Both the position numbers and the translations under genes were made by a program. Below the pieces are notes generated by a model. The model searched no databases. It saw only the letters and a program-made list of their open reading frames with translations, and had not been told where the DNA came from. From Candidatus Parcubacteria bacterium (lineage in GTDB: Bacteria > Patescibacteriota > Saccharimonadia > Saccharimonadales > 2-12-FULL-41-12), in NCBI GenBank assembly GCA_019347895.1, contig JAHWKM010000002.1:8565-72564 (forward strand): 64,000 bases of DNA. The letters are read 5' to 3'. Positions 3,840 to 53,420 of this stretch are shown one piece after another; position 1 is the first letter of the stretch, and every line of letters begins with the position of its first letter.

Positions 3840-4961
3840 CTAATTAAAACCCTCAAGGAAATTAGTAATGTCAGCGCGTTGTAGGTCTATGTTTTCGAGG
3901 CCGGAGTGGAAGCGGATTATTGTATTTTGGGGTGGGGAAAAGCGATTGCTCAGTTCTTCGGGCTGAAAGGGGAGAATCAGGCTTCGCGTGCCGCCCCAGG
4001 ATTTGCCAATTTTAAATGTTTCCATTGTCTTGAAGGCTTTGTCCAGTTCTGCGTCGTTGTAACGGCGATCAAGCTCGATACTAAATAAGCCGTTAGATCC
4101 GCTAAGACTGCCGTTAATTTTTGAGCCGGCACGATAAATCTTTGAAATTTTAGGGTGGTTAGCTATGACCCGCGTCAGTTGATCGGCTTTGGCGCCATGT
4201 GCCGCCATTCGCACATTCAAACTTTCCAGTCCGCGGCTAACTAGCATAGCTGAAAATGGTGATACGCCGTAGCCAAAAACACGGTGGTAATAACTAAATC
4301 GCTTGAACAATTCAAGATTTTTGCAAGTCAGTGAACCCATGAAAACATCACTGTAGCCGGCCGGATACTTGGTCAGGCCTAGAATACTAATATCAATCCC
4401 ATGGGCAAGGGGTTGATACAATATTCCAGAGGCCCAGGTATTATCGGCTGAAGTCAAAATATCTTTGGCTTTAGCCAGTTTGACAAGTCCGTCAACATCA
4501 GTTTCTTCAAACGTAACTGAAACCGGTGTTTCTATGTGAATCAGCTTCGTTTCAGCTTTTATCAGAGAGGCTACGGAGTTAATTGAAGTCGGATCATAAT
4601 AATCGCAGCTAATGCCGTAATGCTTATGCATAAAATCGGCATAGCGACGCGTCGGACCATACACGCTGTCGGGCAAAAGCCAGTGATCGCCGGAACTAAG
4701 CAACGCTCCCACAGAAGTTAGCGCACTTAGTCCGCTCGGAAATAATAACGTATGAGTACCGTTCTCCAGCTCGGATACTGAATCCTGAAGCTTTTGGATC
4801 GTAGGATTACCTTGCAAGCCATACCCATTATCAACGTTTTCAACTGTCTGCCCAGGTAGTACGCGTTGGCCCTGGCCGGCAATCCGATAATCCGCCAAAC
4901 TGTCAAAATGCAGACTACTGCTCATATGTATTGAACGTGTAATACCTTCATTTTCATCCAT
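3840..4961 (-). CDS. Cys/Met-metabolism PLP-dependent enzyme (cystathionine beta-lyase/gamma-synthase family)
   Basis: 373 aa. Motifs LLFPSGLSALT, ADNTWASG, and LGLTKYPAGYSDV carrying the PLP-lysine context. Confidence 0.8.
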   Translation of the reverse strand: MDENEGITRSIHMSSSLHFDSLADYRIAGQGQRVLPGQTVENVDNGYGLQGNPTIQKLQDSVSELENGTHTLLFPSGLSALTSVGALLSSGDHWLLPDSVYGPTRRYADFMHKHYGISCDYYDPTSINSVASLIKAETKLIHIETPVSVTFEETDVDGLVKLAKAKDILTSADNTWASGILYQPLAHGIDISILGLTKYPAGYSDVFMGSLTCKNLELFKRFSYYHRVFGYGVSPFSAMLVSRGLESLNVRMAAHGAKADQLTRVIANHPKISKIYRAGSKINGSLSGSNGLFSIELDRRYNDAELDKAFKTMETFKIGKSWGGTRSLILPFQPEELSNRFSPPQNTIIRFHSGLENIDLQRADITNFLEGFN

Positions 4962-5147
4962 AAGCTTTAGCCTACCATAAGGATTAGATTACCTCTAGCT
5001 TAAATCGCATCGGTAATATACTAATGGTTTTTGTTTCTTACTTATCAATTGCTTACCTGTACCTAAGTAGTACCCTTTAATAAAGAATACAGCAAAAGCG
5101 GTAGACATTAGCCAAATATGCTATTATTGATTAATTAACAATTTATA

Positions 5148-5300: not shown

Positions 5301-6481
5301 ATGTCGAAACAGCAAGATAATGAGTTAGGGATCGGAACCAGACTAGTTCACGGGGGGCAACCGGCAGATCCCATCACTGGTGCAGTTGCACCGGTATTGA
5401 TCCGTAGCAAAACTTTTCAACAGCCGACTTTTGGTGTTGAGTCAAAATGGCAATACTCCAGAGGTAAGAATCCTACCCGTAGTATCCTGGAACGTCGGCT
5501 TGAAAGCCTGGCAGGAGACGGAAAAGCCACTGTATTCGGATCTGGCGATGCCGCTACCACTATGTTCCTCCTTACCCTCAAACCCGGTGATCATTTAATC
5601 TGTTGCCGCGAGTTATATGGGGGTACCATTCGTTTGCTGAATCAGCTTTTCGCGGACTTCGGAATCCGGGCTTCATATGTTGACATTGAGGATATCGAAG
5701 CCGTAAAAAAAGTGCAAACTCCCGAAACGGTAGCAATCTGGACGGAAAGTCCTACTAATCCAAAGCTGGGTGTTATTGACTTGACTAAAGTCGGCAATAT
5801 CGCCCGTAAGCTGAGACTTAGATTTATTGTTGATCTGACATTTGCCCCCCCTGTACGACGGACCCGTTCGAATACGGAGCTGAAACGGTTGTCTATAGCC
5901 TGAGTAAGTATTTCGCTGGGCACAATGATGTCATCGGAGGAGCAATCATAACCAAAAATCAGTCGTTGTACGACAGGCTATGTTGGTTGCAATGGTCGGT
6001 TGGAGCAGTGTTATCACCAGATGAGTGCTACCGTGCCATACAAGAACTTAAAACCCTGGAGCTGCGATGGAAACGAACCAGCGAATCTGCCCAAGCAATA
6101 GCCGAACATTTGAATATTCATGATCAGATTCAGGCCGTTTATTACCCGGGCCTACCCGGCCATACAGGCCATGACGTCGTCAAGAAACAAATGAAAAATG
6201 GTTTTGGCAGTGTTCTGGCCTTTGACCTTATGTCCGTTGATACAAGCTTAATGGCAAAATTTGTATCTAGTCTCCAAGAAAGCCAGTTAGTCGTATTCGG
6301 CGAAAGCTTAGGGAGTCCCGAAACTATACTTGCCCATCCGGTCACCATGGGTCACCGAAGCCTAACTCAGGCACATCTGGATGAGCTAAAAATAGGTAAT
6401 AATCTCTTTAGGCTTAGTGTGGGTTTTGAGGAACCCGCAGATATTATTCGCGTGCTTGATCAAGCATTAGATATTTTTTAG
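5301..6481 (+). pseudogene. Cystathionine gamma-synthase/lyase-family PLP enzyme, disrupted by a 1-nt frameshift in a C7 tract (5845-5851)
   Basis: ORFs 5301-5903 and 5966-6481 are the N- and C-terminal parts of one enzyme. Adding one C gives ...IVDLTFAPPCTTDPFEYGAETVVYSLSKYFAGHNDV..., restoring the SxSKY PLP-Lys motif. Confidence 0.75.
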
Positions 6482-6532: not shown

Positions 6533-6612
6533 TCCGAAAAAACTGGCCGCGGCGAAGTAAGACCGCCTCCACCACCTAAGCGACATAATGCAAAAAGAAC
6601 TCGGTTTATAAA
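6533..6612 (+). repeat. Duplicate of the dapB 3' end (compare 2701-2781), including the stop codon
   Basis: 36-nt perfect core CCTCCACCACCTAAGCGACATAATGCAAAAAGAACT at 2736-2771 and 6566-6601, with diverged flanks that still align. Confidence 0.85.
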
Positions 6613-6658
6613 ACTTTTTAAATAAGCCATTTCAACCGGACATTCCATGTCCGCTCAA

Positions 6659-6867
6659 CCAATATTTTTGAGTCAGCAAAAATATTGGATAAAAACTGAC
6701 AGGCGGCTTCCAGTTCTTGAGGAGTTCATTGTCAAAGGTCACAATGCTCGGAAAACTCAGCTTGCCCTTTATTAATTTTTAGCCTCGGCAAGCTTCAGAC
6801 ACTTCCTCGCGAGAAATTGTGCTTTTGACATTCACTCATCAGGAACTTCCAGAGCCTGAACAAAAGC
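6659..6867 (+). repeat. Family B structured repeat, copy 1 (diverged)
   Basis: Same helix layout as 53155-53390 and the reverse strands of 26090-26347 and 50230-50477. Hairpin CCAATATTTTTG..CAAAAATATTGG. Closing pairs CAGGC/GCCTG and AGTTC/GAACT replace TGGGC/GCCCA and CCGTC/GACGG. Confidence 0.6.
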
Positions 6868-6904
6868 TGAATCGAAAAGGCTTGCTTTTCGATAATCAAG
6901 ATTT

Positions 6905-7181
6905 GAGAAATTCAAGAATTTCTCATCCTATTTTGGCCAGCATTGATAAAACCGATTGAGGCGAATCAGCTTGGCTCGAATGGCTGATGCGAAACTAAGT
7001 CCTGTTCGCTCCTTGGATAAAATAGAACAGGACCGACCGAAGGGAGTCTTTCGCATCACGAGACAAGGTGGTATTTCGATTCAGTCGTGTTTTAGCACTT
7101 GCTGTCTGCTTTTTCGGTTCCTTTTTTTAGACAAAAAAGGAAATCGCTTGGAGCCATGAAAGGGCTGCGAAATGGCTTTTT
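6905..7181 (+). repeat. Family A structured repeat/candidate ncRNA, copy 1 (junction hairpin, core, terminator-like end)
   Basis: About 90% identical to the reverse strand of 22104-22406 and alignable with 53421-53712. Helices GATGCGAAA/TTTCGCATC and GTCCTGTTC/GAACAGGAC. AGCCAT..ATGGCT plus a T-run at 7152-7181. Confidence 0.65.
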
Positions 7182-13286: not shown

Positions 13287-13393
13287 CAGTCCCTCAAAGT
13301 TAATCCATTTAAACTACTGCCAAAACAATAAGTCTGTCAAGCACCAGCATAATAGTCTGTCTAAAAATACAACAATAAAACTGTCCCGAAATC

Positions 13394-13415
13394 TGTCCGA
13401 TCGGACATAAAACGG
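13394..13415. repeat. Family D palindrome TGTCCGATCGGACA+TAAAACGG
   Basis: Exact 14-nt palindrome. The same 22-mer recurs at 13962-13983, with variants at 45106-45141 and 35495-35549. Confidence 0.7.
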
Positions 13416-13439
13416 TACAAAAATGTTTCGGCTAAAGAT

Positions 13440-13976
13440 TTAAATTCGGTGAGCTTCGAAGACTTGAACGAAATTTTCTAACTTATTTTGTTTAATCTCA
13501 GATTTTAAATATTCACGCGAATCAAAAGTTGAGATCCAGACACTTTTTTGAACTTGGGAAAAAGCAAGTTCCCTTAGTAAAATTCTCAGCTGTCTTCTTT
13601 TAGATCGATCTTTTTCAGGGATATCAAAAATAACCATAAGGCTAGAGTTCTCAAGCTTTTCCGGACTAAATGGCATTAATTTGGACTGGCCTTTATTTGT
13701 TAGGCGCGGATTTTTGCCGTTCGCACTGAATTCAATTAAGCCATTTTTAACGGCGCGATAGTAAGTTGATCTGATAGCTTTTTTATTTATTTTGATCCGA
13801 TCGAGTTTTTCCAAGTCATTAAAAAACTGATTTGGCTTGAATGTTAATTTCACATTTGCTTCGGTGTAGGGAATAAGTCCGGCAAGTATATAATGTAGCG
13901 GCGATCTGTATTTTTTACCCAATCTATCATACTCACTCATAAATTTTATTGTACCAAAATATGTCCGATCGGACAT
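13440..13976 (-). CDS. PaaX-like/Cas2-fold putative transcriptional regulator (start may be the internal ATG at 13940)
   Basis: N-terminal wHTH-like region. Central VIFDIPEKDRSKRRQLRILLRELAFSQVQKSVWIS resembles the PaaX/Cas2-like core. A family D palindrome overlaps the annotated start. Confidence 0.4.
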   Translation of the reverse strand: MSDRTYFGTIKFMSEYDRLGKKYRSPLHYILAGLIPYTEANVKLTFKPNQFFNDLEKLDRIKINKKAIRSTYYRAVKNGLIEFSANGKNPRLTNKGQSKLMPFSPEKLENSSLMVIFDIPEKDRSKRRQLRILLRELAFSQVQKSVWISTFDSREYLKSEIKQNKLENFVQVFEAHRI

Positions 13977-13983
13977 AAAACGT
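13962..13983. promoter_or_regulatory. Family D palindrome at the 5' end of the PaaX-like gene (candidate operator)
   Basis: TGTCCGATCGGACATAAAACG identical to 13394-13414. Overlaps the ORF-track start codon, or lies 22 nt upstream of the alternative ATG at 13940. Confidence 0.45.
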
Positions 13984-14128
13984 AACAGTTTTTATTATTT
14001 TGAGATGGAAAAGGTTTTGAGTATTAGGAAGGCTTGGGTAAACGGACTGTAGGGGGAGAGTTTGGGGTAGGCTGTTGCAGGGAAGGTGTTTTTTGGCTAC
14101 AATTTATGGAAATAATCAGGGAGAAATT

Positions 14129-16045: not shown

Positions 16046-17497
16046 TTATTCAACAACACTCGGCGAGCCAAGGAAATCATGCCGGGTCCGCCGCCAAATA
16101 TAAATAATAAACACTAAAATTGCGCAGTAGCTGGCAATCATGGCCGCCAAAGAAAAATCAGTCTCAGCCAAAGCTATCGGCAGTATGGCCAGTTTGTCGA
16201 CTACGGTTGTCATATACGAAAGTAGGGCATTTGCCGGCCAGCCAAAAATTGTCAGGGTTCCGAAGGCCAGGCTAAATGAACCGGCGAAAAAAGTCAGCAG
16301 CATTGTTAGCGGAATAAACAAAAGTATAAGCAAGTTCGCCGGCAGTGCCAGGGCGGAGTATTGATTGAAAATATAGGCAATTAGCGGAGCAGTCATGATC
16401 TGGGCCGAAAGCGTTTCCAAAAATACCTGATGGATGGGGTTAACTTTTTTAATTTTACCCCAAAAATAATGAAGCAAGAGCGGCGAAACGATAATGACGC
16501 CCGCGAAGGCCGTAAACGATAAGTACCAGCCGATATCGCCCCAGATATAGGCAGGATTGAGCATGGCCGTTACAGCCGCCGCAAAACCCAGAAGAATTAT
16601 CGGATGAATCCGCCGCCCGAAGTACCAGGCCGCTAAACTCAAACCGGTAATAAGCGCCGCTCGCGACATCGACGGACTAAAACCGGTGACCAATACAAAG
16701 CTGAATACCAGCAGGCTTGTGACTAGTGTGGCCAGGTATTTGGAGATTCTGGCAAAAGCCCGCCGGGCAAAACGAACCAAAATTGTTAAGTTATAGCCGC
16801 TGGCTACAACAATATGGGTTAACCCCAGCAATTTTAAGTTATTGTCCAAATCTTCTGGCAGGGTAGAGTGCTGGCCGGTTAAATATCCTATACCAAGCGA
16901 AGCTTCCGGCTCGGGAATGACCTTTCTAACTCCGTCGGCAAACCAGTCGCGAACTTCTCGTGCAATATCCGCATGCTCCACCTGCAAGATTTGCTTCAAA
17001 TCCGCCCTGAACATGACGGCCGCGAAGCTTCCAAAGCCTTCGCTTAGCAGACCGCTAAATACCACCGTGTCGCTGCGTTTTATTTCCGTATTATCTGATG
17101 TGCTGACCCAGACAGTACCGTTCACAGACTGATTTTCTATTTGTATATTTTTGAGTTTTACCCTTTGGTCGCCATCGGTTGAAAAAGCTGTATCCTCAGC
17201 CACAGTTCCCTGCAAAACAACCCGCTCGCCAATATAGGCCTCATAAGCTTGTTCTGATAAAATCGTAACTGATCCGCGCCATAAGCCTAAAATAAGCCCG
17301 GCCGCAATCGCCAGAATTATTATTTTTCGGGATCGATTCATAAACACCACACACAAGAGTGCCAAAGCGGCAATCAGCCAGGAGATATGCGAAAAATAGT
17401 TGCCGGCAACTAACGCCAGGGCTATACCTCCAAGACAGCCAAACGATATCCAAAAGATTAGCCAAGCGGGATGCCTTTTTAGATTATTAGTTTGCAT
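16046..17497 (-). CDS. comEC: ComEC/Rec2-family DNA-uptake channel protein
   Basis: 483 aa polytopic membrane protein with an OB-like periplasmic insert and the conserved competence-domain layout (LTGQHSTLPEDL..., GLTHIVVASGYNLT). Confidence 0.75.
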   Translation of the reverse strand: MQTNNLKRHPAWLIFWISFGCLGGIALALVAGNYFSHISWLIAALALLCVVFMNRSRKIIILAIAAGLILGLWRGSVTILSEQAYEAYIGERVVLQGTVAEDTAFSTDGDQRVKLKNIQIENQSVNGTVWVSTSDNTEIKRSDTVVFSGLLSEGFGSFAAVMFRADLKQILQVEHADIAREVRDWFADGVRKVIPEPEASLGIGYLTGQHSTLPEDLDNNLKLLGLTHIVVASGYNLTILVRFARRAFARISKYLATLVTSLLVFSFVLVTGFSPSMSRAALITGLSLAAWYFGRRIHPIILLGFAAAVTAMLNPAYIWGDIGWYLSFTAFAGVIIVSPLLLHYFWGKIKKVNPIHQVFLETLSAQIMTAPLIAYIFNQYSALALPANLLILLFIPLTMLLTFFAGSFSLAFGTLTIFGWPANALLSYMTTVVDKLAILPIALAETDFSLAAMIASYCAILVFIIYIWRRTRHDFLGSPSVVE

Positions 17498-18212
17498 CTT
17501 CGCCTGCTAAGGGCAAAAGCTGGCCGGGGCATCTACTAATTATTCGTTTCATGGATTCGTACTCAGCCTTTGTCACCCATAGTAAATACTTAACCTTTAC
17601 CGCAATTTGCCGGGCCACATATTGGCAGCGATAATCTTTATTGGGCGGGAGCCATGTAGCCGCATCACCATTGCCTTTCTGCTGGTTAGCCGGACCGTCG
17701 ACTGCCAATAGGTTCAGGGAATCATTGGCAAACTTTAGCCTGGTGGGTTCATCAAGAAGCTGGGCGCCTTTTTGCCAGGAATCAGACAATGCTACGACAT
17801 GGTCAATTTGCACGGCTTGACTGGTTTGGCTGCCGCGCTGAAAATCGAGCTGCTTTCCCGTGTATGGGTCATTTAACACTCCGCTTAAGACGTGGCAGCC
17901 ATTTGTTTGGTCGATTATAGTCTCCGTTAGGTCACGCTCAAGAATATTGTTGCGTGTATCGCAGCCGTCAAACTCAGCCCAGCCGCTGCCAAATTGATCC
18001 CTTGAGTAGCCCGTCTTTGGCGCCCGCCCTTTGATTTCTAATTTATTTAATTCATCATTAGCTAAATGTTGTCCGTCGACAGAAACAGATGTAAATTGTT
18101 CTATTGTACTAGTAGGCTGAAACAAATTAAAAGTAATCCCAGCCAAAGACAGCAAGGCTAAAATAAGAACAACCACGACTCTCCGCCGTCTCTCAATCAT
18201 GCAAAAAATCAT
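17487..18212 (-). CDS. Secreted HNH/DUF1524-family nuclease
   Basis: N-terminal TM/signal sequence. QIDHVVALSDSWQKGA and GNGDAATWLPPN motifs. The 3' end overlaps the comEC start by 11 nt. Confidence 0.6.
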   Translation of the reverse strand: MIFCMIERRRRVVVVLILALLSLAGITFNLFQPTSTIEQFTSVSVDGQHLANDELNKLEIKGRAPKTGYSRDQFGSGWAEFDGCDTRNNILERDLTETIIDQTNGCHVLSGVLNDPYTGKQLDFQRGSQTSQAVQIDHVVALSDSWQKGAQLLDEPTRLKFANDSLNLLAVDGPANQQKGNGDAATWLPPNKDYRCQYVARQIAVKVKYLLWVTKAEYESMKRIISRCPGQLLPLAGEDAN

Positions 18213-22103: not shown

Positions 22104-22406
22104 TTTTCAACTAAGTCAAAGTTCTTGTGGCCAAGAACCAATTTCGGCGGTACTTCGTACCTACCCCGAGTTCCTTTTTTGTCTGAAAAAAGGAACCGAA
22201 AAAGCAGACAGCAGGTGAGAAAACACGACTGAAGCGAGATACCAGCTTGTCTCGTGATGCGAAAGACTCCTTTCAGTCGGCCCTGTTCCATTTTATCCAA
22301 GGAGCGAACAGGACTTGGTTTCGCATCAGCCATTCGAGACAAGCTGATTCGCCTCAATCGGTTTTATCAATGCTGGGTAAAAGCGATGAGAAAAACTTGT
22401 TTTCTC
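22104..22406 (-). repeat. Family A structured repeat/candidate ncRNA, copy 2 (immediately 3' of the helicase gene)
   Basis: The reverse complement aligns base-for-base with 6905-7143. Junction hairpin at 22388-22406, 11 nt after the helicase stop. Ends with hairpins GGTAC..GTACC and GTTCTTG..CAAGAAC. Confidence 0.65.
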
Positions 22407-22418
22407 AGAATAATAATT

Positions 22419-25400
22419 TTAGTTGTCTAAAGCAGATAGAATTTCATCTATGTGTTTACCTCTATCGTAACTTCCGTCCCATTTAGAGTATGGTATTCTG
22501 TAAAATTTCCATTTTGCTGCCTCTAAAATGCTTTGTCTTTCCCAGTCGCTTTGAACATATACATCCTCGATTTCGTCTTCGAAATGAGTTGGTCCGTCAC
22601 ATTCAATCGCTAATTTTTTGCCGTTAATTTTATTGTGGATAGCAAAGTCAATTTTAAAGCCACAAGATTCAACTTGATTTTGAATTAAATGATTGCTTTT
22701 TAGGTACGGCACTATGAGTTCATAAAAATCACGCTCAAAATTAGAATCAAACATATCTGTATCTACTCCGTCAGAGAACATTCTGGATGCCTTGCCGTTC
22801 TCTTCTACATATTCAAGATATCTTTTTATCCAGATTCCTTCTGGCCATTGTTCCGGTCTTAGAGAAGTTACGCAATGAACTTGGTGTTTGGCTCTCGAAA
22901 ACGCCACATTAACACGGCCTTCATTAAGTTCTCTGTTAATTTCGCCACCTTCGCCTGTTAATGAAATATACCGACTTTTTTCAGAAGGATCACTTATAGC
23001 AAATGAATAGATGATAATTTCTCTTTCGTCGCCCTGTATCCCTTCAATATTGGAAACTTTGATTGATTTATCGTCTATCATTCTTCTCAGTAATTCGGCT
23101 TGTTCTGTGAAGAAGGAAAGTACGCCAATCGACATATCTTTTGTTTGCTCGTCCATTTTAATTTCGCGTATAAGATTGCAGATATATTCTGCTTCATCTA
23201 CATTTGTCTTAAGAGATTCATCCCTCGATCTATTCGAGTCAATTATATGGTTTACCAGCACTCTATTCGTATCCTTGTAAGGTGTAAGTGAGGCATTGAC
23301 TATTTCAAGGGTTCTCTTTCTTGGTCTATAAAAGTATTCGTTTGAAAAACCAATCAATTCACGCGGCGAACGATAATGACTTCTCAGCACTGAACTTCTA
23401 AATCCTTGAAGTATGCCTATGTCCATAACAGACTTCACCGAATCAGACTCACTTTTTATTTGAAGTTCTTCAGGAATTGAATACTTTCTTGCCATCTCCA
23501 GTAATGCATTATTGGATTTAAACTTAATCGTTGTATCACGCATTTGTAATGTGTCGCCAAATAGTAGTGTATGTCTCGCTCGGGACATAGCGGGTATGGC
23601 ATAAGCAAGATTACACTGCGAGGCCTCGTCGATTATTACATAGTCAAAAATATTTAACTCACTCGGTACGATTCTACTCACATCTTCAAGGCTCATCAAC
23701 CACATAGGAAATAGATCTAAAATCGTCTTGAATACAGCCGGATCCGAGCGAAATGAATCATAAGTCTTATATGCCCGTTTAGATTTTTTAAATGTTCGAA
23801 CGGCTCGCTCAACATTCTGTCGGACGGTGGCGTGCGCCCATGCATTATCAAGCCTTGAAGATGTCTTATTACGTAAAGAGTTTTTTACAAATTCTTGATA
23901 CTGCTTTCTGGATTTATGCACTTCTTTATTGAGGGAGTTTATATCTTTAAGCCTTAGGTTGTCGATTTCCTGCTTTAATTCAATAGATTCTATTACTTTA
24001 TCTATGGCTGAATCACCATGTTTTTGTATAAGGTGTACTATTTCGGTATATTCGTCAGATTTTAACCCTAGGTTCTGAAGATTTTTTTTAGCATGAGTTT
24101 CATACTCAAGCATTGAGCGCCTTGTTTCTTCTGATTGAAATGCTAGTATCAAATCTTGAAGCTGAGACCCCAATTTCGTTTTACTTGGAGATCTATTAAA
24201 CTCATCCAGTATTTCTGAGATATAATTTCTTACCTCAACAGGCAGATTATTTGAAACATTCTTTTGTTTAGATAGGGATACTCGATTATGCAGTTTCCTT
24301 GTGATACTAAAGCCAGAATCTTTTATTTGAACCATTAGGCTGGTTTTCATCTGCTCAATATGTCCTGCCGAGTTAACGTAATATTCCATATTGATATAAC
24401 CAAGCTTATTAAAAATTTTTTCATGAGTTTTGTGGTTGCTAGCCACAAATTCTTTCATTTCTTTCAAATGTTTAAGTGTCTTTCTAATATCATTAATCCT
24501 TTCTAAAGGGCTGGCCGTTATAAATTTTTCCGGTTGTGAAATTTTTACATTGAATTCATCGAGATTATTTAGCTTATCTTTTAATTCAAAGTATTTCCTT
24601 TGATTTTGGAATTGGTCGTTATATTCATTTACGACCGATTCAATACTTTTATTTGGCTCTTGCTCAAAAGTACCTCGTCGTCTGTCTTCAATCACTGACT
24701 TTATTCTTGATAGTTCATTTGCGGCGCCATCTACGTCATCGTTAAGTGTATGCAACGCGGAATATCTATCTGGTATATACCCATATAGACCAGGGATATC
24801 TAAACTTTTAAGTAGATCTTTGACCACACGTATTGCCTGATCTTTCTGGCTGACAAAAAGGACTTTCTTATCATTCGCCGCTAAGTGGCATAGAAGGTTT
24901 GCAATTGTCTGCGACTTACCCGTGCCTGGCGGACCTTGAATTATAGAGGCCCTATTTTTTATTTGAGCTAAGACTTCACGCTGATATTTATCAGATAGAA
25001 ATGGAAAATATACTGAGCCTTCTGAACTATTAATATCAATTGTCTCATCTAGCTCGCGCTCATCCACAAAACCTGAAAGGGATGTTTCAAGCAGTTCGTC
25101 CTGCTCCGTGTCTACGAGATTATCAAGATCTTGCGTTAGGAAAAAATTACTTTTCGGTGCAAGCGATATGGATAGATATGCTAAATTAAGCGGTTCACCG
25201 CTGAAAACTACTTCTTCGCACAACCTTAATTCATTAAGCAACTCTTCGTATACTTGCTGAATGACTGTAGTGTCCACAGGTAAAGTAAATTTGCCTTCAA
25301 GCTCCATGCTATTTATTCTTTTTTGAAATTCTTGATATCGATCGGCCCCTAATACTTGTGACATAAATGAAAAACTGGGGGTTATGCGATCATCAAGAAG

Positions 25401-25892
25401 AGTTATTTGCTTTTTTATCCCATTATTTTCAATCTCTATAGGTATAGTAAAAACCGGAAACTGAATTTTCTTTTTTATAGATTCATCTGCCTCATCTTCT
25501 CCTTCAACCTCTAATACGTCTTTAGCGACAAGATCTACATAACCAAGATTGAGCTGGGTTTGTTTTGTAAAACTATCAGTATCAACTTTTAATTTTATTT
25601 CATCAAGTACATTGAGAAGTCTGCGCTGGTATTCGAACTCTTTTTTATTATCTCCCTCTAATTCTTCTATTTTCTTTAAATCTGACTCATAAAAAAGTTC
25701 ACACTTTATACCAAGCTGAATACCGTAAGATATGTCGTCTTCGTCTACGGCCGCAAGGATATCATTTAGTGATAGGATGTGCGGTTTTATCTGATCAGTT
25801 TTTAAGCTAGACCGCTGCCTTACTGGATTTACCATTCCGAGATATGTTTTTGCGTATAAAATTAAGTTTTTTAGTTCAACTACCGAAGACAT
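22419..25892 (-). CDS. Upf1/DNA2-like SF1 helicase with a long N-terminal DUF4011-like region and a C-terminal DUF559/Vsr-like PD-(D/E)xK nuclease domain
   Basis: 1157 aa. Walker A GPPGTGKS, Walker B VIIDEASQ, LFGDTLQM, HYRSPRELIGFSNEYFY, IQGDEREIII, NVAFSRAK. C-terminus KIDFAIH...LAIECDGPTHF...YRIPYSKW. Visibly more AT-rich than neighbouring genes (judged by eye, not computed). Confidence 0.8.
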   Translation of the reverse strand: MSSVVELKNLILYAKTYLGMVNPVRQRSSLKTDQIKPHILSLNDILAAVDEDDISYGIQLGIKCELFYESDLKKIEELEGDNKKEFEYQRRLLNVLDEIKLKVDTDSFTKQTQLNLGYVDLVAKDVLEVEGEDEADESIKKKIQFPVFTIPIEIENNGIKKQITLLDDRITPSFSFMSQVLGADRYQEFQKRINSMELEGKFTLPVDTTVIQQVYEELLNELRLCEEVVFSGEPLNLAYLSISLAPKSNFFLTQDLDNLVDTEQDELLETSLSGFVDERELDETIDINSSEGSVYFPFLSDKYQREVLAQIKNRASIIQGPPGTGKSQTIANLLCHLAANDKKVLFVSQKDQAIRVVKDLLKSLDIPGLYGYIPDRYSALHTLNDDVDGAANELSRIKSVIEDRRRGTFEQEPNKSIESVVNEYNDQFQNQRKYFELKDKLNNLDEFNVKISQPEKFITASPLERINDIRKTLKHLKEMKEFVASNHKTHEKIFNKLGYINMEYYVNSAGHIEQMKTSLMVQIKDSGFSITRKLHNRVSLSKQKNVSNNLPVEVRNYISEILDEFNRSPSKTKLGSQLQDLILAFQSEETRRSMLEYETHAKKNLQNLGLKSDEYTEIVHLIQKHGDSAIDKVIESIELKQEIDNLRLKDINSLNKEVHKSRKQYQEFVKNSLRNKTSSRLDNAWAHATVRQNVERAVRTFKKSKRAYKTYDSFRSDPAVFKTILDLFPMWLMSLEDVSRIVPSELNIFDYVIIDEASQCNLAYAIPAMSRARHTLLFGDTLQMRDTTIKFKSNNALLEMARKYSIPEELQIKSESDSVKSVMDIGILQGFRSSVLRSHYRSPRELIGFSNEYFYRPRKRTLEIVNASLTPYKDTNRVLVNHIIDSNRSRDESLKTNVDEAEYICNLIREIKMDEQTKDMSIGVLSFFTEQAELLRRMIDDKSIKVSNIEGIQGDEREIIIYSFAISDPSEKSRYISLTGEGGEINRELNEGRVNVAFSRAKHQVHCVTSLRPEQWPEGIWIKRYLEYVEENGKASRMFSDGVDTDMFDSNFERDFYELIVPYLKSNHLIQNQVESCGFKIDFAIHNKINGKKLAIECDGPTHFEDEIEDVYVQSDWERQSILEAAKWKFYRIPYSKWDGSYDRGKHIDEILSALDN

Positions 25893-25953: not shown

Positions 25954-26083
25954 AGAAAATCTGAGATTTTCTTATCTGCTTTTGTTCAGGCGCTCTGGAA
26001 GTTCCCGCCGTCGACCGGGCTTTGGCGGACAGGCCTGATCAGTGAATGCCAAAATAGTATTTATAGAAAAACAGGTTTTTTCT
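25954..26083 (-). repeat. Junction modules upstream of the helicase gene: two GAGAAA..TTTCTC-type hairpins (25954-25972, 26065-26083) bracketing a fragment of a copy-1-type B unit (25978-26048)
   Basis: The reverse complement of 25978-26048 matches 6826-6867 (CATTCACT-ATCAGG...AACTTCCAGAGC-CTGAACAAAAGC) apart from a 29-nt insert. Confidence 0.55.
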
Positions 26084-26089
26084 ATTCTA

Positions 26090-26347
26090 ATTGTTGGGTT
26101 TGGGCATTGAGAGCCGTCCTGATTGGCGAATGTCAAAAACACAATTACTAGCGAGGCAGTGTTTAAGCCCCTCACCTTTTTGGATGTAAAAAGGTGAGGG
26201 GTGAGTTTGCCGAGCATTGTGTCTTTTGACAATGAGACAGTCAAGACGGATCGACGCCCAAGAGTTTTTGCATTCTTTTGTCGGCACAAAAGAATGGACT
26301 TGCTTCTTTGTCGAAAGAAGTTGGCTTGGTTCTTCGACCAGAAGAAC
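26090..26347 (-). repeat. Family B structured repeat, copy 2 (starts at the purP stop codon)
   Basis: TTGGGC..GCCCAA, CCGTC/GACGG and TGTCAAAAGACACAAT/ATTGTGTTTTTGACA helices. Interior hairpin GCCCCTCACCTTTTT..AAAAAGGTGAGGGG. Outer hairpins covary with the other copies. Confidence 0.65.
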
Positions 26348-29743: not shown

Positions 29744-30955
29744 ATGTCAGCTGTTAAATTTCATATAACTACTAGAAGCGGTAATGCCCGTACAGGGGTA
29801 ATAGCCACGCCCCATGGGCCGATAAAGACCCCGGCCTTTATCCCCGTCAGTACGAAAGCGACAGTAAAAACGCTAGACGTTCATGACCTGCAAAAACTAA
29901 AAGCACCGGCAGTGCTGGCCAATGCATATCATCTGTATTTAAGGCCCGGACCAGAGCTGATAGCCAAATTGGGAGGAGTAGGGGAATTTATGGGCTGGAA
30001 CGGGCCGACCTTCACCGACAGCGGCGGCTTCCAGGTTTTTTCGCTCGGCTTTGGCCTTGAACATGGCGTCGGCAAGGTCGCTAATATCTTTCCCGACGAA
30101 GATTTGCAAGGCCGGGCCTCGCAAACTAGGAAAAGGTTGTTTAATATTGATAAGGACGGAGCTAACTTCGTCTCGCACCTGGACGGCTCAAAACACAGGT
30201 TTACTCCTGAAAACTCAATAGAAATACAGCAAATGCTCGGCGCCGATATCATCTTCGCTTTTGACGAATGTACTTCGCCGCTGCACGGAAAAAAATATAC
30301 TGCCGAGGCAATGGAGCGCACTCATGCCTGGGCAAAAAGATGCCTGCAAGCTTGGACCAACAGAGACAAGCAAGGACTATATGGAATAATCCAGGGCGGC
30401 GCGTATAAGGATTTACGGATAGCTAGCAGCGAATTCATCTGTGCTTTAGATACGCCGGGAATCGCTATCGGCGGCAGTTTGGGTAAGAGTAAAAAAGATA
30501 TGTACGAGATAATGGACTGGACTATACCCGTTTTGCCGGAGGATAAGCCGCGGCATTTACTGGGAATCGGCGAGGTAGAAGACCTTTTCGGTGCCAGCGC
30601 CAGGGGAATCGACACTTTTGACTGCGTGTCGCCGACTAGAAATGCCCGCAACGGCAGCGTATATATAAGGCCGGAAAATGGCGGAACGGCAAAAAATAAA
30701 TATTCTATCAATATCAGGGCTGGAAAATATTCTCAAAATACAGAACCTATTGACCCGGGCTGTAAGTGTTTTACCTGTCAAAATCACAGCCGGGCCTATA
30801 TCCGACACCTATTCGTCAGCGAGGAACTACTAGCCATGCGCCTGGCGACTATCCACAATCTGCACTTCATCTTTACCTTAATGGCTGAAATCCGCCACGC
30901 TATTCAACAAGAGACGTTGCATAATTTAGCCGACAATTGGCAAATAAACCCTTAA
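29744..30955 (+). CDS. tgt: tRNA-guanine transglycosylase (queuine tRNA-ribosyltransferase)
   Basis: ARTGVIATPHGPIKTPAFIPV, TDSGGFQV, and the Zn site CKCFTCQNHSRAYIRHL. Confidence 0.9.
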   Translation: MSAVKFHITTRSGNARTGVIATPHGPIKTPAFIPVSTKATVKTLDVHDLQKLKAPAVLANAYHLYLRPGPELIAKLGGVGEFMGWNGPTFTDSGGFQVFSLGFGLEHGVGKVANIFPDEDLQGRASQTRKRLFNIDKDGANFVSHLDGSKHRFTPENSIEIQQMLGADIIFAFDECTSPLHGKKYTAEAMERTHAWAKRCLQAWTNRDKQGLYGIIQGGAYKDLRIASSEFICALDTPGIAIGGSLGKSKKDMYEIMDWTIPVLPEDKPRHLLGIGEVEDLFGASARGIDTFDCVSPTRNARNGSVYIRPENGGTAKNKYSINIRAGKYSQNTEPIDPGCKCFTCQNHSRAYIRHLFVSEELLAMRLATIHNLHFIFTLMAEIRHAIQQETLHNLADNWQINP

Positions 30956-33215: not shown

Positions 33216-33380
33216 GGAGAGGTGTCCGAGTGGCTGAAGGAGCACGCTTGGAAAGCGTGTATGCGCAGCAATGCGCATCGAGGGTGAGAACTGCCGGTGG
33301 CAGTTCGCAAGGAAATCTTCTCTTGAAAACTTGTTTTCAAAGACGAAGTTTCGGGGTCGCTGTAAGCGACCGAATCCCTT
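33216..33380 (+). pseudogene. Disrupted tRNA-Ser(GGA)-like copy: intact 5' two-thirds, ~85-nt structured insert in the T-loop, no 3' acceptor strand
   Basis: GGAGAGGTGTCCGAGTGGCTGAAGGAGCACGCTTGGAAAGCGTG plus a variable arm, then GAGGG-[33286-33370]-CGAATCCCT. The following ATTATTA cannot pair with GGAGAGG. Confidence 0.55.
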
Positions 33381-33394
33381 ATTATTAATATGTT

Positions 33395-33484
33395 GGAGGA
33401 GTGGCCGAGTGGTTTAAGGCGCACGCTTGGAAAGCGTGTTGAGGAGCAATTCTCTCGCAGGTTCAAATCCTGTCTCCTCCGCCA
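33395..33484 (+). tRNA. tRNA-Ser (anticodon GGA), CCA encoded
   Basis: Hand-folded cloverleaf: acceptor GGAGGAG/CTCCTCC, anticodon arm CACGC-TTGGAAA-GCGTG, long variable arm, T arm GCAGG-TTCAAAT-CCTGT. Confidence 0.9.
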
Positions 33485-38127: not shown

Positions 38128-38148
38128 TTGCAAGGCCGGGCCTTGCAA
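38128..38148. repeat. REP hairpin TTGCAAGG-CCGGG-CCTTGCAA (left flank of the RAYT gene)
   Basis: Perfect 8-bp stem. Its reverse complement equals the right-flank hairpin apart from one base. Confidence 0.7.
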
Positions 38149-38163: not shown

Positions 38164-38775
38164 CTAATAATCTGCCAGGTCGTATTTTATTTCATCAAGC
38201 ATACTTTTGTGCTCTTCATAGTCATTCAAAAATTCTAAGTAGTCAGTATCCTCCATCATTTCCGCGATGCGATTAGGCAACAACCATTCCGCCTGTCTTT
38301 CGCCCAGATAATAAGGCAGGCTGGAAAACTCCCACTGCCTCCATTGCCGGGGGTTTAAGTGAATATATCGGGAAATATGCTGCAAATAACCTTCGTTCAG
38401 TATGTGGCTTGCCTTGTATCGGTCTTGGAACAGCGGTCCAACACGTGTATATTTTTTATTAAAATAGGTGCTATAAGAACTGATTACCGCCAGCATCAGC
38501 TCTGTCAGCGCGTTTTTATCGTGGATATAAATTAATAAATGATAATGGTTTGGCATTAAGCAAAAAGCCAAAAGCTCTATTCTGCCATTCATGTGTGAAT
38601 ATTCGCGGCCAGAATCATCTTTGGTAGGCTTTTTACTCAGGTATCGCTTGAAAAGATTCAGAAAAACAGCATAGTCCTGCTCGTCGATGAATATCTTCCT
38701 CTTCTCAACGCCGCGATTATATACATGATAGAAAGAATCATCCGCATAAATTTTCAATCTGTTTCTGCTTGGCAT
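38164..38775 (-). CDS. IS200-like Y1 (HUH) transposase of the REP-associated tyrosine transposase (RAYT) type
   Basis: 203 aa. YHVYNRG, HUH motif PNHYHLL, catalytic Tyr context SRYIHLNP. Flanked by inverted REP hairpins. Confidence 0.8.
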   Translation of the reverse strand: MPSRNRLKIYADDSFYHVYNRGVEKRKIFIDEQDYAVFLNLFKRYLSKKPTKDDSGREYSHMNGRIELLAFCLMPNHYHLLIYIHDKNALTELMLAVISSYSTYFNKKYTRVGPLFQDRYKASHILNEGYLQHISRYIHLNPRQWRQWEFSSLPYYLGERQAEWLLPNRIAEMMEDTDYLEFLNDYEEHKSMLDEIKYDLADY

Positions 38776-38803: not shown

Positions 38804-38824
38804 TTGCGAGGCCCGGCCTTGCAA
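38804..38824. repeat. REP hairpin TTGCGAGG-CCCGG-CCTTGCAA (right flank of the RAYT gene, inverted orientation)
   Basis: See 38128-38148. Confidence 0.7.
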
Positions 38825-38845: not shown

Positions 38846-39568
38846 ATGAGGAAGTTTGCGGTTTTTGATTTTGACGGGACGTTAGTCCGGTGGCAGCTTT
38901 ATCATGCTATTGTCGACCAGCTGGCTAAGGCTGGCTGGGTAGATGAAAAATCTTATCGAGATGTTAAGGACGCACGGCTAAGATGGAAAACCCGTGAGTC
39001 CCAAGATGCCTTTAAGGATTACGAGAAGCGCTTAATAGAATGTTACGAAAAGACTTTGCCCAAACTTACTGCAGATAAATTAGAATCAGCAATCAACAAA
39101 GTTTTTGACGAACACAAACAGCAAGTTTATGTTTATTCGCGAAACTTATTGAGTGAGCTGAAAGATAAAGGTTATTTCCTGATCGCTATTTCCGGCTCTC
39201 ATCGTGAAGTTGTTGAGCTAATTGCTAAACATTATGGTTTTGATGATTGGGTGGGCACGAAGTATGAGAAAATCGAGGGTAAATTTACCGGCAAATATCA
39301 GCTGGCTGCCGCCGAAAAAGACATAATTTTAAATAAATTAATACATGAACATGACTTAAAGTTGGAAGAAAGCATAGGTGTAGGCGACAGTGAAAGTGAC
39401 ATACCAATGCTGGAGCTAGTAGAAAACCCGATCGCCTTTAACCCTTCGGAAAAATTATTCAACCATGCAAAATCCAAAGGCTGGAAAATCGTCGTTGAGC
39501 GCAAAAACGTAGTTTACGAATTAGAAAATGTTGACAGAAACCAGAAAAATGTCTATCATTTGTCCTGA
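38846..39568 (+). CDS. HAD-IB family hydrolase (SerB-like phosphatase family)
   Basis: FAVFDFDGTL (motif I), ISGS (motif II), GVGDSESDIPML (motif IV). Confidence 0.7.
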   Translation: MRKFAVFDFDGTLVRWQLYHAIVDQLAKAGWVDEKSYRDVKDARLRWKTRESQDAFKDYEKRLIECYEKTLPKLTADKLESAINKVFDEHKQQVYVYSRNLLSELKDKGYFLIAISGSHREVVELIAKHYGFDDWVGTKYEKIEGKFTGKYQLAAAEKDIILNKLIHEHDLKLEESIGVGDSESDIPMLELVENPIAFNPSEKLFNHAKSKGWKIVVERKNVVYELENVDRNQKNVYHLS

Positions 39569-45070: not shown

Positions 45071-45105
45071 ATCCCAGCCAATAAGAACTAAAAATATAAT
45101 TACTG

Positions 45106-45141
45106 TTCCGTTTTATGGCCGATCGGACACAAAACGGAACA
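45106..45141. repeat. Family D palindrome (GTTCCGTTTT-ATGGCCGATCGGACAC-AAAACGGAAC)
   Basis: Read directly. Lies between the DAHP synthase stop and the pip-like gene, so it could also act as a bidirectional terminator hairpin. Confidence 0.65.
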
Positions 45142-48480: not shown

Positions 48481-48758
48481 ATCGTTCGCTCCGCTCACTG
48501 CTCACCCCACAAAGCGGAATCAAGAAACCCGAAATAAATTCGTCTTTCTTTCAGCTTAATATTCTGAAGTCAAAGTAATCTTTTGTAGGAAAAAACTTTA
48601 AGCAATGATATATTATTAGTTACCTTCGCTACGGCGGAGTACTCAACAATAATTTAACTCATATCTCAGTACGCTGGGACAAAGGAGGCAACATGGAATT
48701 AGATTTTTAAATTCGCAATTTGCGAATTTTTTTATTTATTAATACAAGGAGAATAATA

Positions 48759-50219
48759 ATGAGTGTTATTGAAACAACTCCCAACGTAAGAGCCATGGAA
48801 AGCCTTAAGCATGTTGGGTACTCAAATGAAGCAGCGATAGCAGATTTAGTAGACAATTCAATGGATGCGGGTGCCGACCGAGTACATATACAAATTGGCG
48901 CCGATAAAATAGCCATTGTCGATAATGGTAGCGGGATGGACCGGTTTACCCTAGAAGAAGCGATAAAGCTAGGATCAAATACCCAACGAAGTTCTGGTGA
49001 CCTTGGTAAATTTGGAATGGGCTTAGTGACAGCATCTCTTTCCCTCGGCCGGAAATTAACGGTACATACAGAAGATGAAGGTTCGCTAAAGGCATACACG
49101 GTTAAGCAAGACCTTAACTTGATGATTGACAAGAATAAATATTACGCAGATTTAGACGAGAGCGTAAAGATAGGAAAAAGTGGCACTTCAGTCGTAATTC
49201 AGAATCTTGATAATCTAAAGTATAAGCACGAAACGCTGGTGAATAGAGTCAGGGAAGAACTTTCCAGAATCTTTCGACACTATATAAAGGCCGGCAAAAT
49301 TATTAGCGTTAATGGCGAGAAACTGACTGCTTTAGACCCTTTAATGCTCGATGAGGAGGGAGCCGAGCTTTATTCGGATGATACTTATGATGTTAACGGA
49401 AAGATTATTAGAATCCGGGTGGCATTTCTCCCAAAGTTTTCAAAAGAAGAGCAGAAACGCCGAAATGTAAATAGCAGAACACAAGGGTTCTATTTAGTTA
49501 GAAACTCGCGTGAAATTGTGACAGCCAGTACTTTAGGTATGTTTACCCGCGACTGGTGGAATACTCGGATACGAATAGAGGTAATGTTCTCCGATGATCT
49601 CGATGCTGAATTCGGCATTGATTTTACAAAAAGTAAGTTAACACTTAAAAACTCTGTTCGTAATTTAATACACGAGGCAACTCGTAAGCAAATTTCCCAC
49701 TTAATAAACCGTACAAAAAGTACAGCTAAACTTGATGACAAAGAGGCCATAGTAAAGCACAGCGAGAGCGAGCAAACAATTAGACAAAAAAATAAGCTGC
49801 TTATTCTTCCCAAAGGGAATAAGGAAATGAGAGAAACTGCCGGTGGCGCAGCTCGTAAAAAAACGAAGGCTGAAGGTAAAAGCAAAGATAGGCTCAACGT
49901 TTCAAAAACACACGAAGGTAACAAGGATCATCCAGCACGTGGTATCGAAATTCTTGAAGGTCACCATTCACAGTTTGGGCCTATATTTTACTGCTATATG
50001 GTCGGTCAAAAGACCATCGTAGAATGGAACTATGATCATCCATTCTATGAGCGCATGCTGCTAAGATTTAGAGAAGAGAAGGATGTTATTACAGCCCTAG
50101 ACTACCTTGCATATTCTTTTGGTGTTGCAGAAATGACAGTACAGACCGAGGAGTCTCAGGACGTGTTCGGAAATTATCATAGTGTAGCTTCCAGTAACCT
50201 TAGAACACTCTTATCTTAA
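48759..50219 (+). CDS. GHKL-superfamily ATPase (HATPase_c_3, MORC-like), orphan
   Basis: AGGAG SD before the ATG at 48759. N box IADLVDNSMDAGA, G1 box VDNGSGM, G2 box GKFGMGL. AT-rich. No adjacent methylase or nuclease partner. Confidence 0.75.
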   Translation: MSVIETTPNVRAMESLKHVGYSNEAAIADLVDNSMDAGADRVHIQIGADKIAIVDNGSGMDRFTLEEAIKLGSNTQRSSGDLGKFGMGLVTASLSLGRKLTVHTEDEGSLKAYTVKQDLNLMIDKNKYYADLDESVKIGKSGTSVVIQNLDNLKYKHETLVNRVREELSRIFRHYIKAGKIISVNGEKLTALDPLMLDEEGAELYSDDTYDVNGKIIRIRVAFLPKFSKEEQKRRNVNSRTQGFYLVRNSREIVTASTLGMFTRDWWNTRIRIEVMFSDDLDAEFGIDFTKSKLTLKNSVRNLIHEATRKQISHLINRTKSTAKLDDKEAIVKHSESEQTIRQKNKLLILPKGNKEMRETAGGAARKKTKAEGKSKDRLNVSKTHEGNKDHPARGIEILEGHHSQFGPIFYCYMVGQKTIVEWNYDHPFYERMLLRFREEKDVITALDYLAYSFGVAEMTVQTEESQDVFGNYHSVASSNLRTLLS

Positions 50220-50229: not shown

Positions 50230-50477
50230 TTTTGGGGGGTTGGGCATAGAGAGCCGTCCTGATTGACGAGTGTCAAAACAACAATTTTAAGGCTTGGGAG
50301 CTAGCCGAACGAAATCTTTAGAAATTGATAAAGAGAGAGGCCGACTGAAAGGAGTCGCCCAAGCCATTGTTGTTTTTGACAAAGAGACAGTCACGACGGA
50401 TCGACGCCCAATCGGTTTTGGATACTTTTGCCGAGGCAAAAGTATTGATTTGCTTCTTTATCTAAAAGAAGTAGTCT
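50230..50477 (-). repeat. Family B structured repeat, copy 4 (starts at the PEGA-gene stop and abuts the 3' end of the GHKL gene)
   Basis: Reverse complement about 90% alignable with 53177-53390. Carries the GGCCGACTGAAAGGAGTC motif (50339-50356). No family A partner. Confidence 0.65.
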
Positions 50478-53154: not shown

Positions 53155-53390
53155 GTTCTTCCAATGAAGAACCAAATTGCTACTTTTGCGCCGGCAAAAG
53201 TAGCCAAAAGCTCTTGGGCGTCGATCCGTCGTGACTGCCTCATTGTCAAAAGCAACAATGGCTTGGGCGACTCCTTTCAGTCGGCCCAGTCTTTCTATAA
53301 ATTTCATAAGCAAAGACTGGGCTAGCTCCCAAGCCTTAAAATTGTTGTTTTGACACTCGAGGTCAGGACGGCTCTCTATGCCCAAACCCA
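53155..53390 (+). repeat. Family B structured repeat, copy 3 (starts 1 nt after the upstream stop)
   Basis: GTTCTTC-CAAT-GAAGAAC, CTACTTTTGC..GCAAAAGTAG, TTGGGCG..GCCCAA, CCGTC/GACGG, TGTCAAAAGCAACAAT/ATTGTTGTTTTGACA. Confidence 0.65.
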
Positions 53391-53420
53391 AAAATTTGAA
53401 TTATCATTATTTTATTACCT

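Follow-up and report, generated by a model that had tools for sequence, protein, structure and literature searches.

Family B, a previously undescribed structured repeat dispersed behind genes in a clade of Saccharibacteria

Four copies behind gene ends

The stretch of DNA analysed in this work (the window) comprises 64,000 nt of contig JAHWKM010000002.1 from Candidatus Parcubacteria bacterium (GCA_019347895.1; Saccharimonadales according to GTDB). It hosts four copies of a repeat, family B, each of which folds into an irregular hairpin of about 150 nt, preceded by an A-rich linker and, 5' of this, by one to three small hairpins. Family B is a real, previously undescribed interspersed structured repeat of one Saccharibacteria clade. 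The four copies had been proposed in a preliminary description of the sequence, and their positions and strands are borne out by two degenerate core patterns of 19-21 nt, and by a covariance model, R1 (212 positions, 57 pairs), built from 23 copies, namely copy 1 and 22 copies residing elsewhere. Each pattern matches only the four copies in 64 kb, where about 0.3 matches are expected by chance, and none of 100 shuffles of the window reached four matches. No further full copy emerged when the window was scanned with R1. The mean column identity among the four copies is 69%. R1 scores are given below, together with the z values obtained by comparing RNA folding with that of dinucleotide shuffles. 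Cores belong to arm subtype alpha (CAGGC/GCCUG) or beta (UGGGC/GCCCA), and carry a tip of type I or II.

6628-6658, +: optional 5' module of copy 1, CATTTCAAC, a small hairpin, then CTCAA
6659-6858, +: copy 1 core, alpha arms, type I tip; R1 207.3 bits, z = -6.1; upstream feature, an 80-nt duplicate of the dapB 3' end
6659-6688, 6689-6695 and 6700-6858, +: P1 hairpin, A-rich linker and long hairpin of copy 1
6672-6700, +: pseudoknot strands of copy 1, P1 loop GUCAG (6672-6676) with CUGAC (6696-6700), just 5' of the closing stem
6872-6894, +: small A/U-rich hairpin behind copy 1, ATCGAAAAGG-CTTG-CTTTTCGAT
25984-26048, -: remnant, alpha-type 3' half, CATTCACTGATCAGG...AACTTCCAGAGCGCCTGAAC, matching the 3' arm of copy 1; inverted repeat
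26101-26296, -: copy 2 core, beta arms TGGGC/GCCCA, type I tip; R1 161.4 bits, z = -8.1; upstream gene, PurP-type (DUF1246/DUF1297)
26303-26347, -: two small 5' hairpins of copy 2, GTTCTTC..GAAGAAC and CTTCTTT..AAAGAAG, the first overlapping the stop codon of the PurP-type gene
50241-50446, -: copy 3 core, beta arms, type II tip with a CGACUCCUUUCAGUCG hairpin; R1 76.1 bits, z = -7.5; upstream gene, PEGA-domain
50453-50471, -: small 5' hairpin of copy 3, behind the PEGA gene stop (50478-50480)
53155-53172, +: small 5' hairpin of copy 4, GTTCTTCCAATGAAGAAC, immediately 3' of the DUF4367 gene stop codon
53179-53384, +: copy 4 core, beta arms, type II tip; R1 76.7 bits, z = -10.6; upstream gene, DUF4367

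The preliminary description had rightly recognized a repeat, and had overestimated its unit at about 210-260 nt: cores in the window span about 196-206 nt, and the surplus is made of optional small 5' hairpins. The stem variants that it gave are present. In copy 1 the closing stems read CAGGC/GCCTG plus AGTTC/GAACT, in the other three copies TGGGC/GCCCA plus CCGTC/GACGG; the long helix occurs both as CACAAT/ATTGTG and as CAACAAT/ATTGTTG; the variants of the 5' hairpin and the exchangeable apical region (tips I and II) are also there. The dapB remnant that it had seen next to copy 1 is the 80-nt duplicate listed above, with no intact gene. The module at 6628-6658 precedes many alpha-type copies elsewhere, with hairpins that covary, as judged by eye only. 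The hairpin at 6872-6894 also resides 3' of copies in L016, L021, L023, L027, L028, L040 and L042 (L-numbers denote loci or contigs of other genomes compared with the window).

All four window copies are in sense orientation behind gene ends, as originally claimed. Two lie on each strand of a window across which GC skew rises steadily. Placement was surveyed for 52 copies scoring at least 60 bits, by using naive open reading frame (ORF) calls. The gene closest upstream shares the strand of the repeat in 28 cases, and lies on the other strand in 9. Orientation can be judged in co-directional spacers only, which host 14 sense and about 3-5 antisense copies; 11 copies lie in convergent and 3 in divergent (promoter) spacers, the latter being avoided, and face-to-face pairs of copies are found between convergent genes at several loci. 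On the loci at hand, placement is non-random and, in the informative contexts, orientation is sense-biased; such a census had been called for in the preliminary description. The element typically starts 20-60 nt (about 40) past the stop codon, a distance often reduced to only 8-25 nt, and the next start codon lies about 200 nt past the element. Upstream genes are housekeeping genes unrelated to each other; ordinary neighbouring genes include those encoding a hibernation factor, RNase III, FtsX, topoisomerase I, ComM, a PurM-like protein and others.

Several simple explanations of this arrangement were discarded. A conserved gene position is out, because upstream genes are not orthologous between genomes. 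The repeat is not the 5' leader of the downstream gene, as eleven copies, copy 3 among them, are flanked by convergent genes, and copies in general adjoin the upstream stop rather than the downstream start. An independent gene driven by its own promoter is out too: no sigma-70-like promoter was found in front of the copies, and spacers are too short. Nor are the cores intrinsic terminators, because the sense strand lacks a G+C-rich hairpin followed by a U-tract; only P1 in antisense was flagged. Many copies in other genomes precede a separate terminator-like hairpin with a U-tract.

Fold, covariation and modules

The core unit of about 195-206 nt has sharp ends, its first base being that of P1 and its last that of the closing stem of the long hairpin. 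The L030 and L041 copies are 98.5% identical over exactly 195 nt and have unrelated flanks, and the L012 and L006 copies, both from one metagenome-assembled genome (MAG), are 91% identical across the same 195-nt span. P1 is a 12-bp hairpin of the flavour YACUUUYUUG/CAARAAAGUR. The linker which joins P1 to the long hairpin measures 7 nt in 40 of 49 copies, and is 73% A. The long hairpin, about 150 nt in length and irregular, consists of a covarying closing stem, a long and nearly continuous helix, an almost invariant centre (UUGUCAAAG..CACAAU with AUUGUG..CUUUUGACA), a 2x2 mismatch which is conserved, an inner stem which covaries, and a tip both variable and exchangeable. At the DNA level the invariant arms read TCATTGTCAAA..ACAATG and AATTGT..TTTTGACA.TC, and the spacer between them covaries.

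The alignment of 50 copies was fitted to the nested structure, and figures for nested pairs are somewhat inflated: standard pairs occupy 90.7% of the cells, versus 71.7% with shuffled partners and 35-46% with slid partners, double changes are found in 49 of the 61 modelled pairs, and the covariation score is 0.44 versus 0.13. None of 500 shuffles matched the observed value on any covariation measure. The data show that the fold of family B is under selection across genomes. Compensatory changes had been claimed for all helices in the preliminary description, but not all of them covary, the central helix P4 being almost invariant in sequence. The notion that structure had been conserved over sequence is only half right: the fold is kept, but two arms of the long hairpin hardly vary. 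The conclusion drawn from compensatory changes, that family B functions as RNA or single-stranded DNA (ssDNA), is supported, and more strongly than four copies could do.

An H-type pseudoknot is formed by the P1 loop and 5 nt located just 5' of the closing stem. Pairs vary among copies as GUCAG/CUGAC, GUCGG/CCGAC, GUCGA/UCGAC, GCCA/UGGC, UGGCC/GGCCA and UGGUC/GACCA. Pairing involves 69.6% of the cells, versus 50.9% with shuffled and 19-46% with slid partners; among 39 distinct loop/linker combinations, 19 form four or all of the 5 pairs, and the observed mean (3.0 versus 2.16 +/- 0.12) was reached in 0 of 2000 permutations. Since the pseudoknot lies outside the R1 model, its covariation represents an independent test of the fold. 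The pseudoknot is supported only in the alpha subfamily, which is the main one, and copy 1 is the only window copy in which it is in register.

Whether the constraint acts on RNA or on ssDNA was approached by counting wobbles. G-U pairs are 102 (58 leaving aside one fixed wobble) versus 78 A-C mismatches, and folding of the antisense strand is on average 4 kcal/mol more favourable than that of the sense strand. Neither the counts nor the folding energies are decisive. G-U pairs of the sense strand cluster at two positions, one being U-G in 44 of 49 copies, the other, in the middle of the most conserved helix, alternating between G-U and A-U (20 versus 26 copies); A-C mismatches are scattered and occur at low frequency. 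The clustering of G-U pairs, the A-rich linker of fixed length, an orientation which follows that of genes, and the face-to-face pairs between convergent genes are hints in favour of the sense strand.

Arm and tip subtypes occur in all four combinations, and modules of family B have therefore been exchanged. Additional modules flank the core in some copies. At the 5' side these are either a GUUCUUC..GAAGAAC-CAAAU hairpin or a CAUUUCRA-hairpin module, at the 3' side either GGnnAAGACCAUGG or a AUCGAAAA..UUUUCGAU hairpin. Single copies are broken by short G+C-rich palindromic inserts (such as CCTGTCCGCCAAAGCCCGGTCGACGGCGGG) in L016 (about 1690-1710), in L031 (about 5030-5066) and in the window (26002-26031, minus strand), where a 30-nt insert splits the remnant at 25984-26048. 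These inserts adjoin a conserved CTTCCAG motif, present as a direct repeat on both arms. In L020 (3408-3470, the same as locus L039) a family B copy is directly followed by a G-run and tandem heptamers (CAGAAGA)n.

A second repeat of about 240 nt, family A, is also found in sense orientation behind gene ends, at 6904-7146 (+), 22167-22384 (-) and 53420-53615 (+), and in L042 (1350-1607), L027 (1106-1343) and L040 (4-111). In the window, two of its three copies immediately follow a family B copy on the 3' side, and family A has no Rfam match. The two families share an 18-nt hairpin, which in family B belongs to the type II tip and in family A has the opposite orientation. This 18-mer, GGCCGACTGAAAGGAGTC, had already been spotted in the preliminary description, and occurs five times with at most 3 mismatches (0 expected).

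Spread, gain and loss, and the RAYT-like gene

A set including one genome per GTDB species was searched with an exact 24-base pattern taken from the 3' arm, which identified 14 loci in 12 Saccharibacteria/Patescibacteria MAGs, most of which are labelled Candidatus Saccharibacteria, Saccharimonadales or Patescibacteria group. A slightly looser pattern matched 29 metagenome contigs. According to R1, the window and the loci together contain 50 full copies of at least 63 bits, on about 40 contigs; several had been missed by the exact pattern. Sense strands score 76-220 bits, reverse strands only 13-30 bits. Local density is uneven, ranging from 4 copies in 64 kb (the window) to 3 in 4.6 kb (L004, the only exact matches in a contig of 720 kb), to none in 65 kb at four other Saccharibacteria loci (L046-L049), two of which are syntenic with the window. 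Window proteins find homologs in Saccharibacteria, and those shared with the carrier loci are only 40-72% identical, hence carriers of family B are well diverged. Viral contigs scanned with two core patterns gave no match, and there is thus no sign of a phage origin. A comparison with Rfam 15, as proposed in the preliminary description, revealed at gathering score (HEARO, group I and II introns, 6S and T-box included) only two tRNAs in the window, and copies 1 and 4, scanned permissively together with their flanks, gave nothing better than E = 1, with chance matches of the miRNA type. No description of family B was found in the literature on structured RNA, repeats or miniature inverted-repeat transposable elements (MITEs) of Saccharibacteria and Patescibacteria.

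Comparison of orthologous sites is instructive. The DUF4367 site, which hosts copy 4, is devoid of the element in L044, L045, L047 and one Logan contig. The DUF4367 stop is separated from the gltX start by 58 nt in L044, versus 573 nt in the window, and a promoter-like segment of gltX is conserved on the far side of the copy 4 site. The PEGA site, which hosts copy 3, is empty in L046, L047 and the Logan contig, and is filled in L028 by a copy which, unlike copy 3, carries a type I tip. In turn, L031 and L034 have copies behind the orthologs of window genes 38846-39568 and 58190-58579, where the window sites are empty. The occurrence of orthologous sites alternately filled and empty indicates that family B has been gained and lost. 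Decayed elements are also found, namely the 3' half in the window and a 5'-truncated copy in L015.

Some of these data could fit a cis-acting RNA selected by the host, each copy regulating or stabilizing its own upstream mRNA, and dispersal being a secondary matter. It may be, as an example, a 3' untranslated region (UTR) platform bound by proteins, or a switch between the closing stem and a downstream CCAUGG hairpin; in many copies a downstream CCAGG, CCAUGG or UCAGG varies together with the 3' strand of the closing stem, and judging by eye could pair with that strand instead. Strong covariation extending to the pseudoknot, a linker of fixed length, the mostly sense placement directly 3' of stop codons, and sequence blocks kept across distant genomes would all be explained. 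Yet, upstream genes share nothing, their orthologs in relatives manage without the element, the distribution is patchy and burst-like, and decayed remnants are tolerated. On balance, selection of each copy for the sake of its own gene is unlikely.

The search for a gene able to mobilize family B relied on Pfam scans of nearly all window ORFs of at least 120 aa and of 147 ORFs flanking copies at 43 loci. No recurrent transposase, recombinase, reverse transcriptase or RNA-guided nuclease was found in this set, and no parent insertion sequence with family B ends was detected among the window ORFs or the 147 flanking ORFs, which come from partial contigs. A 203-aa gene located between inverted copies in L004 was considered, and dismissed for having neither a Pfam match nor a HUH motif. 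Family B lacks defining features of MITEs. It has no terminal inverted repeats, since the unit starts with the 5' arm of P1 and ends with the closing stem's 3' strand, and the two are not complementary. No target-site duplication was seen, as direct repeats are missing at the ends of 49 copies, including L030 and L041, ends which are known within about 3 nt.

The same scans bear on the idea that family B works in trans, either as a multi-copy small RNA or as a guide scaffold resembling the omega-RNA of TnpB/IscB, with the variable flank as the guide. A sharply bounded scaffold of about 200 nt with a pseudoknot and long stems, flanks differing from copy to copy, and the terminator-like hairpins behind many copies are features in keeping with it. 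However, no OrfB, TnpB, IscB or Cas gene is present in the window or recurrent in the flanks of the 43 loci, no Rfam family, HEARO included, was matched, a promoter-like site is lacking, and stop codon and element are often separated by only 8-25 nt. A trans-acting RNA is very improbable.

Reverse transcriptases are common in bacteria of the candidate phyla radiation (CPR). Family B may be a promoter-less element which propagates via RNA, a bacterial analogue of short interspersed nuclear elements, or be multiplied by some other RNA-templated or RNA-guided copier; the pseudoknotted fold may be the handle for an enzyme encoded in trans, such as a reverse transcriptase. This is very doubtful. 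If true, it would explain why copies are placed in sense behind expressed genes, where alone they are transcribed again, and why the fold is conserved rather than the terminal sequence.

A transposase gene does reside in the window, and is associated with a hairpin of its own.

38164-38775, -: RAYT-like Y1 (HUH) transposase gene, 203 aa; Y1_Tnp Pfam match of 43.5 bits, cutoff 23
38128-38148 and 38804-38824: inverted copies of the 21-nt hairpin TTGCAAGGCCNGGCCTTGCAA, flanking the RAYT-like gene
30104-30124: third copy of the TTGCAAGGCCNGGCCTTGCAA hairpin, inside the tgt (queuine tRNA-ribosyltransferase) ORF

The RAYT-like protein carries a HUH motif (NHYHLL) and a RYKAS tyrosine motif, and its best NCBIfam match is REP-associated tyrosine transposase, though its score of 46 falls short of the cutoff (80). 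Other Saccharibacteria have the gene in syntenic position, between HAD hydrolase and Exo_endo_phos genes; it is single-copy and about 60% conserved, thus behaving as described for domesticated RAYTs. The TTGCAAGGCCNGGCCTTGCAA hairpin is kept next to it in four other genomes (L046-L049), and family B copies are missing from the 65 kb around these four genes. The association of the gene with its own hairpin, and the absence of family B at the four loci, imply that the cognate repeat is not family B, and the gene was discarded as its mobilizer. A decayed RAYT-like homolog is found about 400 nt from the truncated family B copy in L015.

REPINs, as found in Pseudomonas and E. coli, are REP doublets which form hairpins, accompanied by RAYT transposases, and the hairpin has been predicted to form 'in ssDNA or mRNA' (PMC3116915). 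Family B resembles them in many respects. It is extragenic and multi-copy, features conserved inverted ends, a variable spacer and a long compensated hairpin, includes defunct single-arm remnants, and coexists with a RAYT-like gene in the same genome. The differences are marked as well. Family B is about twice as long and asymmetric, because of the extra 5' hairpin, the A-rich linker and the pseudoknot; it is biased in orientation relative to genes; the RAYT-like gene is flanked by another, much shorter hairpin, and occurs elsewhere without family B. Tens to hundreds of copies per genome are expected of REPINs, and the local densities of family B quoted above come from partial contigs. In sum, inverted conserved ends and a compensated spacer are shared with REPINs, a symmetric unit and a RAYT gene flanked by the same repeat are not.

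According to a REPIN-like view, family B would be an ssDNA element, its invariant inverted arms being the sites of a Y1 (HUH) transposase, as that encoded at 38164-38775; the hairpin would be needed in ssDNA for excision and insertion, and any effect on RNA would be incidental. The layout, from the extragenic location to the singlet remnants, corresponds to that of published REPINs (PMC3116915), the transposase is widely conserved in Saccharibacteria, its decayed homolog lies close to a truncated copy, and there is no overall asymmetry between G-U and A-C. The hypothesis clashes with the identity of the hairpin flanking RAYT-like genes in five genomes, the lack of family B around four of them, the sub-threshold NCBIfam score, and the asymmetry of the unit, with P1 and the pseudoknot on one side, mirrored by R1 scores of the two strands. 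Moreover, the window copies, two per strand and all in sense, follow gene orientation and not strand. A REPIN-like origin is rather improbable.

Other features of the window are also worth noting. The last 80 nt of dapB (2702-2781) recur 3.8 kb downstream (6534-6611), and between the two ends lie a thrC-like gene, a gene for a Cys/Met pyridoxal phosphate (PLP) enzyme, and a split second copy of such a gene. In the latter, ORFs 5301-5903 and 5966-6481 (+) look like the two parts of one Cys/Met-metabolism PLP enzyme gene broken mid-way, probably a pseudogene for this reason; an intact paralog is on the opposite strand (3840-4961). Similarly, the last 58 nt of a dinB-like gene (60393-60450) are repeated 320 nt downstream (60713-60770), around a small reverse ORF, and the 5' half of a tRNA-Ser gene, 45 nt, is found 180 nt upstream of the intact gene (33216-33260 versus 33395-33439). 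Duplicated gene ends bracketing inserted DNA look like footprints of site-specific integration, as judged from the sequence. A hairpin repeat with the core TGTCCGATCGGACA occurs in inverted orientation at 13377-13428 and 13941-13992, flanking a 178-aa gene with a PaaX/Cas2-like domain (13440-13976), and recurs once at 45104-45141. Next to copy 3, a 499-aa HATPase_c_3 gene (48720-50219, +) sits between the sortase and PEGA genes; its absence at this position in L028, L046 and L047 makes it look like a lineage-specific insertion. Other defence-like genes near it encode a 1157-aa helicase-nuclease (22419-25892) and a protein with a GmrSD_C domain (17487-18212).

Likeness to known elements and plausible role

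Further comparisons help to place family B. Class C group II introns integrate in sense orientation immediately past intrinsic terminator hairpins, and family B likewise follows directly, in sense, upon a small terminator-like hairpin located behind a gene. Family B is however only about 200 nt long, matches neither domain V/VI nor any intron in Rfam, and has no reverse transcriptase nearby. The attC sites of integrons are imperfect inverted repeats with a conserved fold and a variable centre, strand-specific, and located in sense behind an ORF; all this applies to family B as well. In contrast to attC sites, family B is longer and has an extra 5' hairpin, occurs on both strands next to housekeeping genes, and forms no one-directional cassette array. 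Integron attC sites were rejected, since R''/R' boxes (RYYYAAC ... GTTRRRY) are missing at the ends of family B, and no integrase gene was seen.

BOX elements of Streptococcus pneumoniae (boxA-boxB-boxC) and Correia/NEMIS elements of Neisseria are interspersed repeats of 100-300 nt, modular, and able to form long stem-loops. They are co-transcribed with their neighbours, affect the processing or stability of mRNA, and encode no transposase. Family B is alike in being interspersed, intergenic, modular, folded into a long stem-loop and devoid of a transposase of its own. It is unrelated in sequence to either, and unlike Correia elements lacks true terminal inverted repeats and a TA target duplication. 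To our knowledge, no covarying pseudoknot has been reported for BOX or Correia elements, and each is confined to one genus; family B spans genomes with proteins only 40-70% identical. By analogy, family B may work most like REP/REPIN, BOX and Correia elements. It is set apart from them by its size, by the module made of 5' hairpin, linker and pseudoknot, by its sense bias, and by its conservation across diverged genomes.

Taken as a whole, the data are best explained by viewing family B as an interspersed repeat, modular and non-autonomous, which read-through turns into a 3' UTR, an interpretation to which we assign about even chances. Its descriptive part, a dispersed repeat, gained and lost, and constrained in its fold, is much more secure than the functional one. 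Transcription continuing past the upstream gene would make the element the tail of that gene's mRNA. The fold of the sense strand would act as a 3'-end structure, plausibly a barrier to 3' exonucleases, a site of double-strand processing, or both. From the other side, it could provide convergent genes with a terminator-like hairpin. Such a 3'-end role would resemble that of REP/BIME, BOX and Correia elements of other bacteria.

Some considerations weigh against a 3' UTR element. Transcription of family B, and any role it has as RNA, are things we infer. The orientation census was made on naive ORFs and short contigs, and comprises only about 19 informative contexts. The beta subfamily, to which window copies 2-4 belong, lacks the pseudoknot in register. 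G-U pairs and A-C mismatches are similar in number and the antisense strand folds better, hence a constraint acting purely at the RNA level is not demonstrated. A simple hairpin is sufficient to block exonucleases, which leaves the complexity of the element and the pseudoknot unexplained. Lastly, a central helix nearly invariant across genomes with proteins 40-70% identical would be better accounted for by recognition by a protein, possibly on DNA, than by a mere barrier.

The genomes of Saccharibacteria, which are tiny, uncultured bacteria, and those of other CPR bacteria are very small and streamlined. A locally multiplied repeat of 200 nt is unexpected in this setting, and must either pay its way or spread well. 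As a structured nucleic acid family B is well defined, having numerous covarying pairs as well as a candidate pseudoknot, and the R1 model is usable for masking or annotating these repeats in CPR assemblies, and as a strain marker too. The conserved, syntenic RAYT-like gene of Saccharibacteria, which has its own REP hairpin, is of interest to the REP/RAYT field in its own right. As to family B, filled and empty orthologous sites make up a natural comparison, by which both the effect of the element on the upstream mRNA and its mechanism of spread may be approached.

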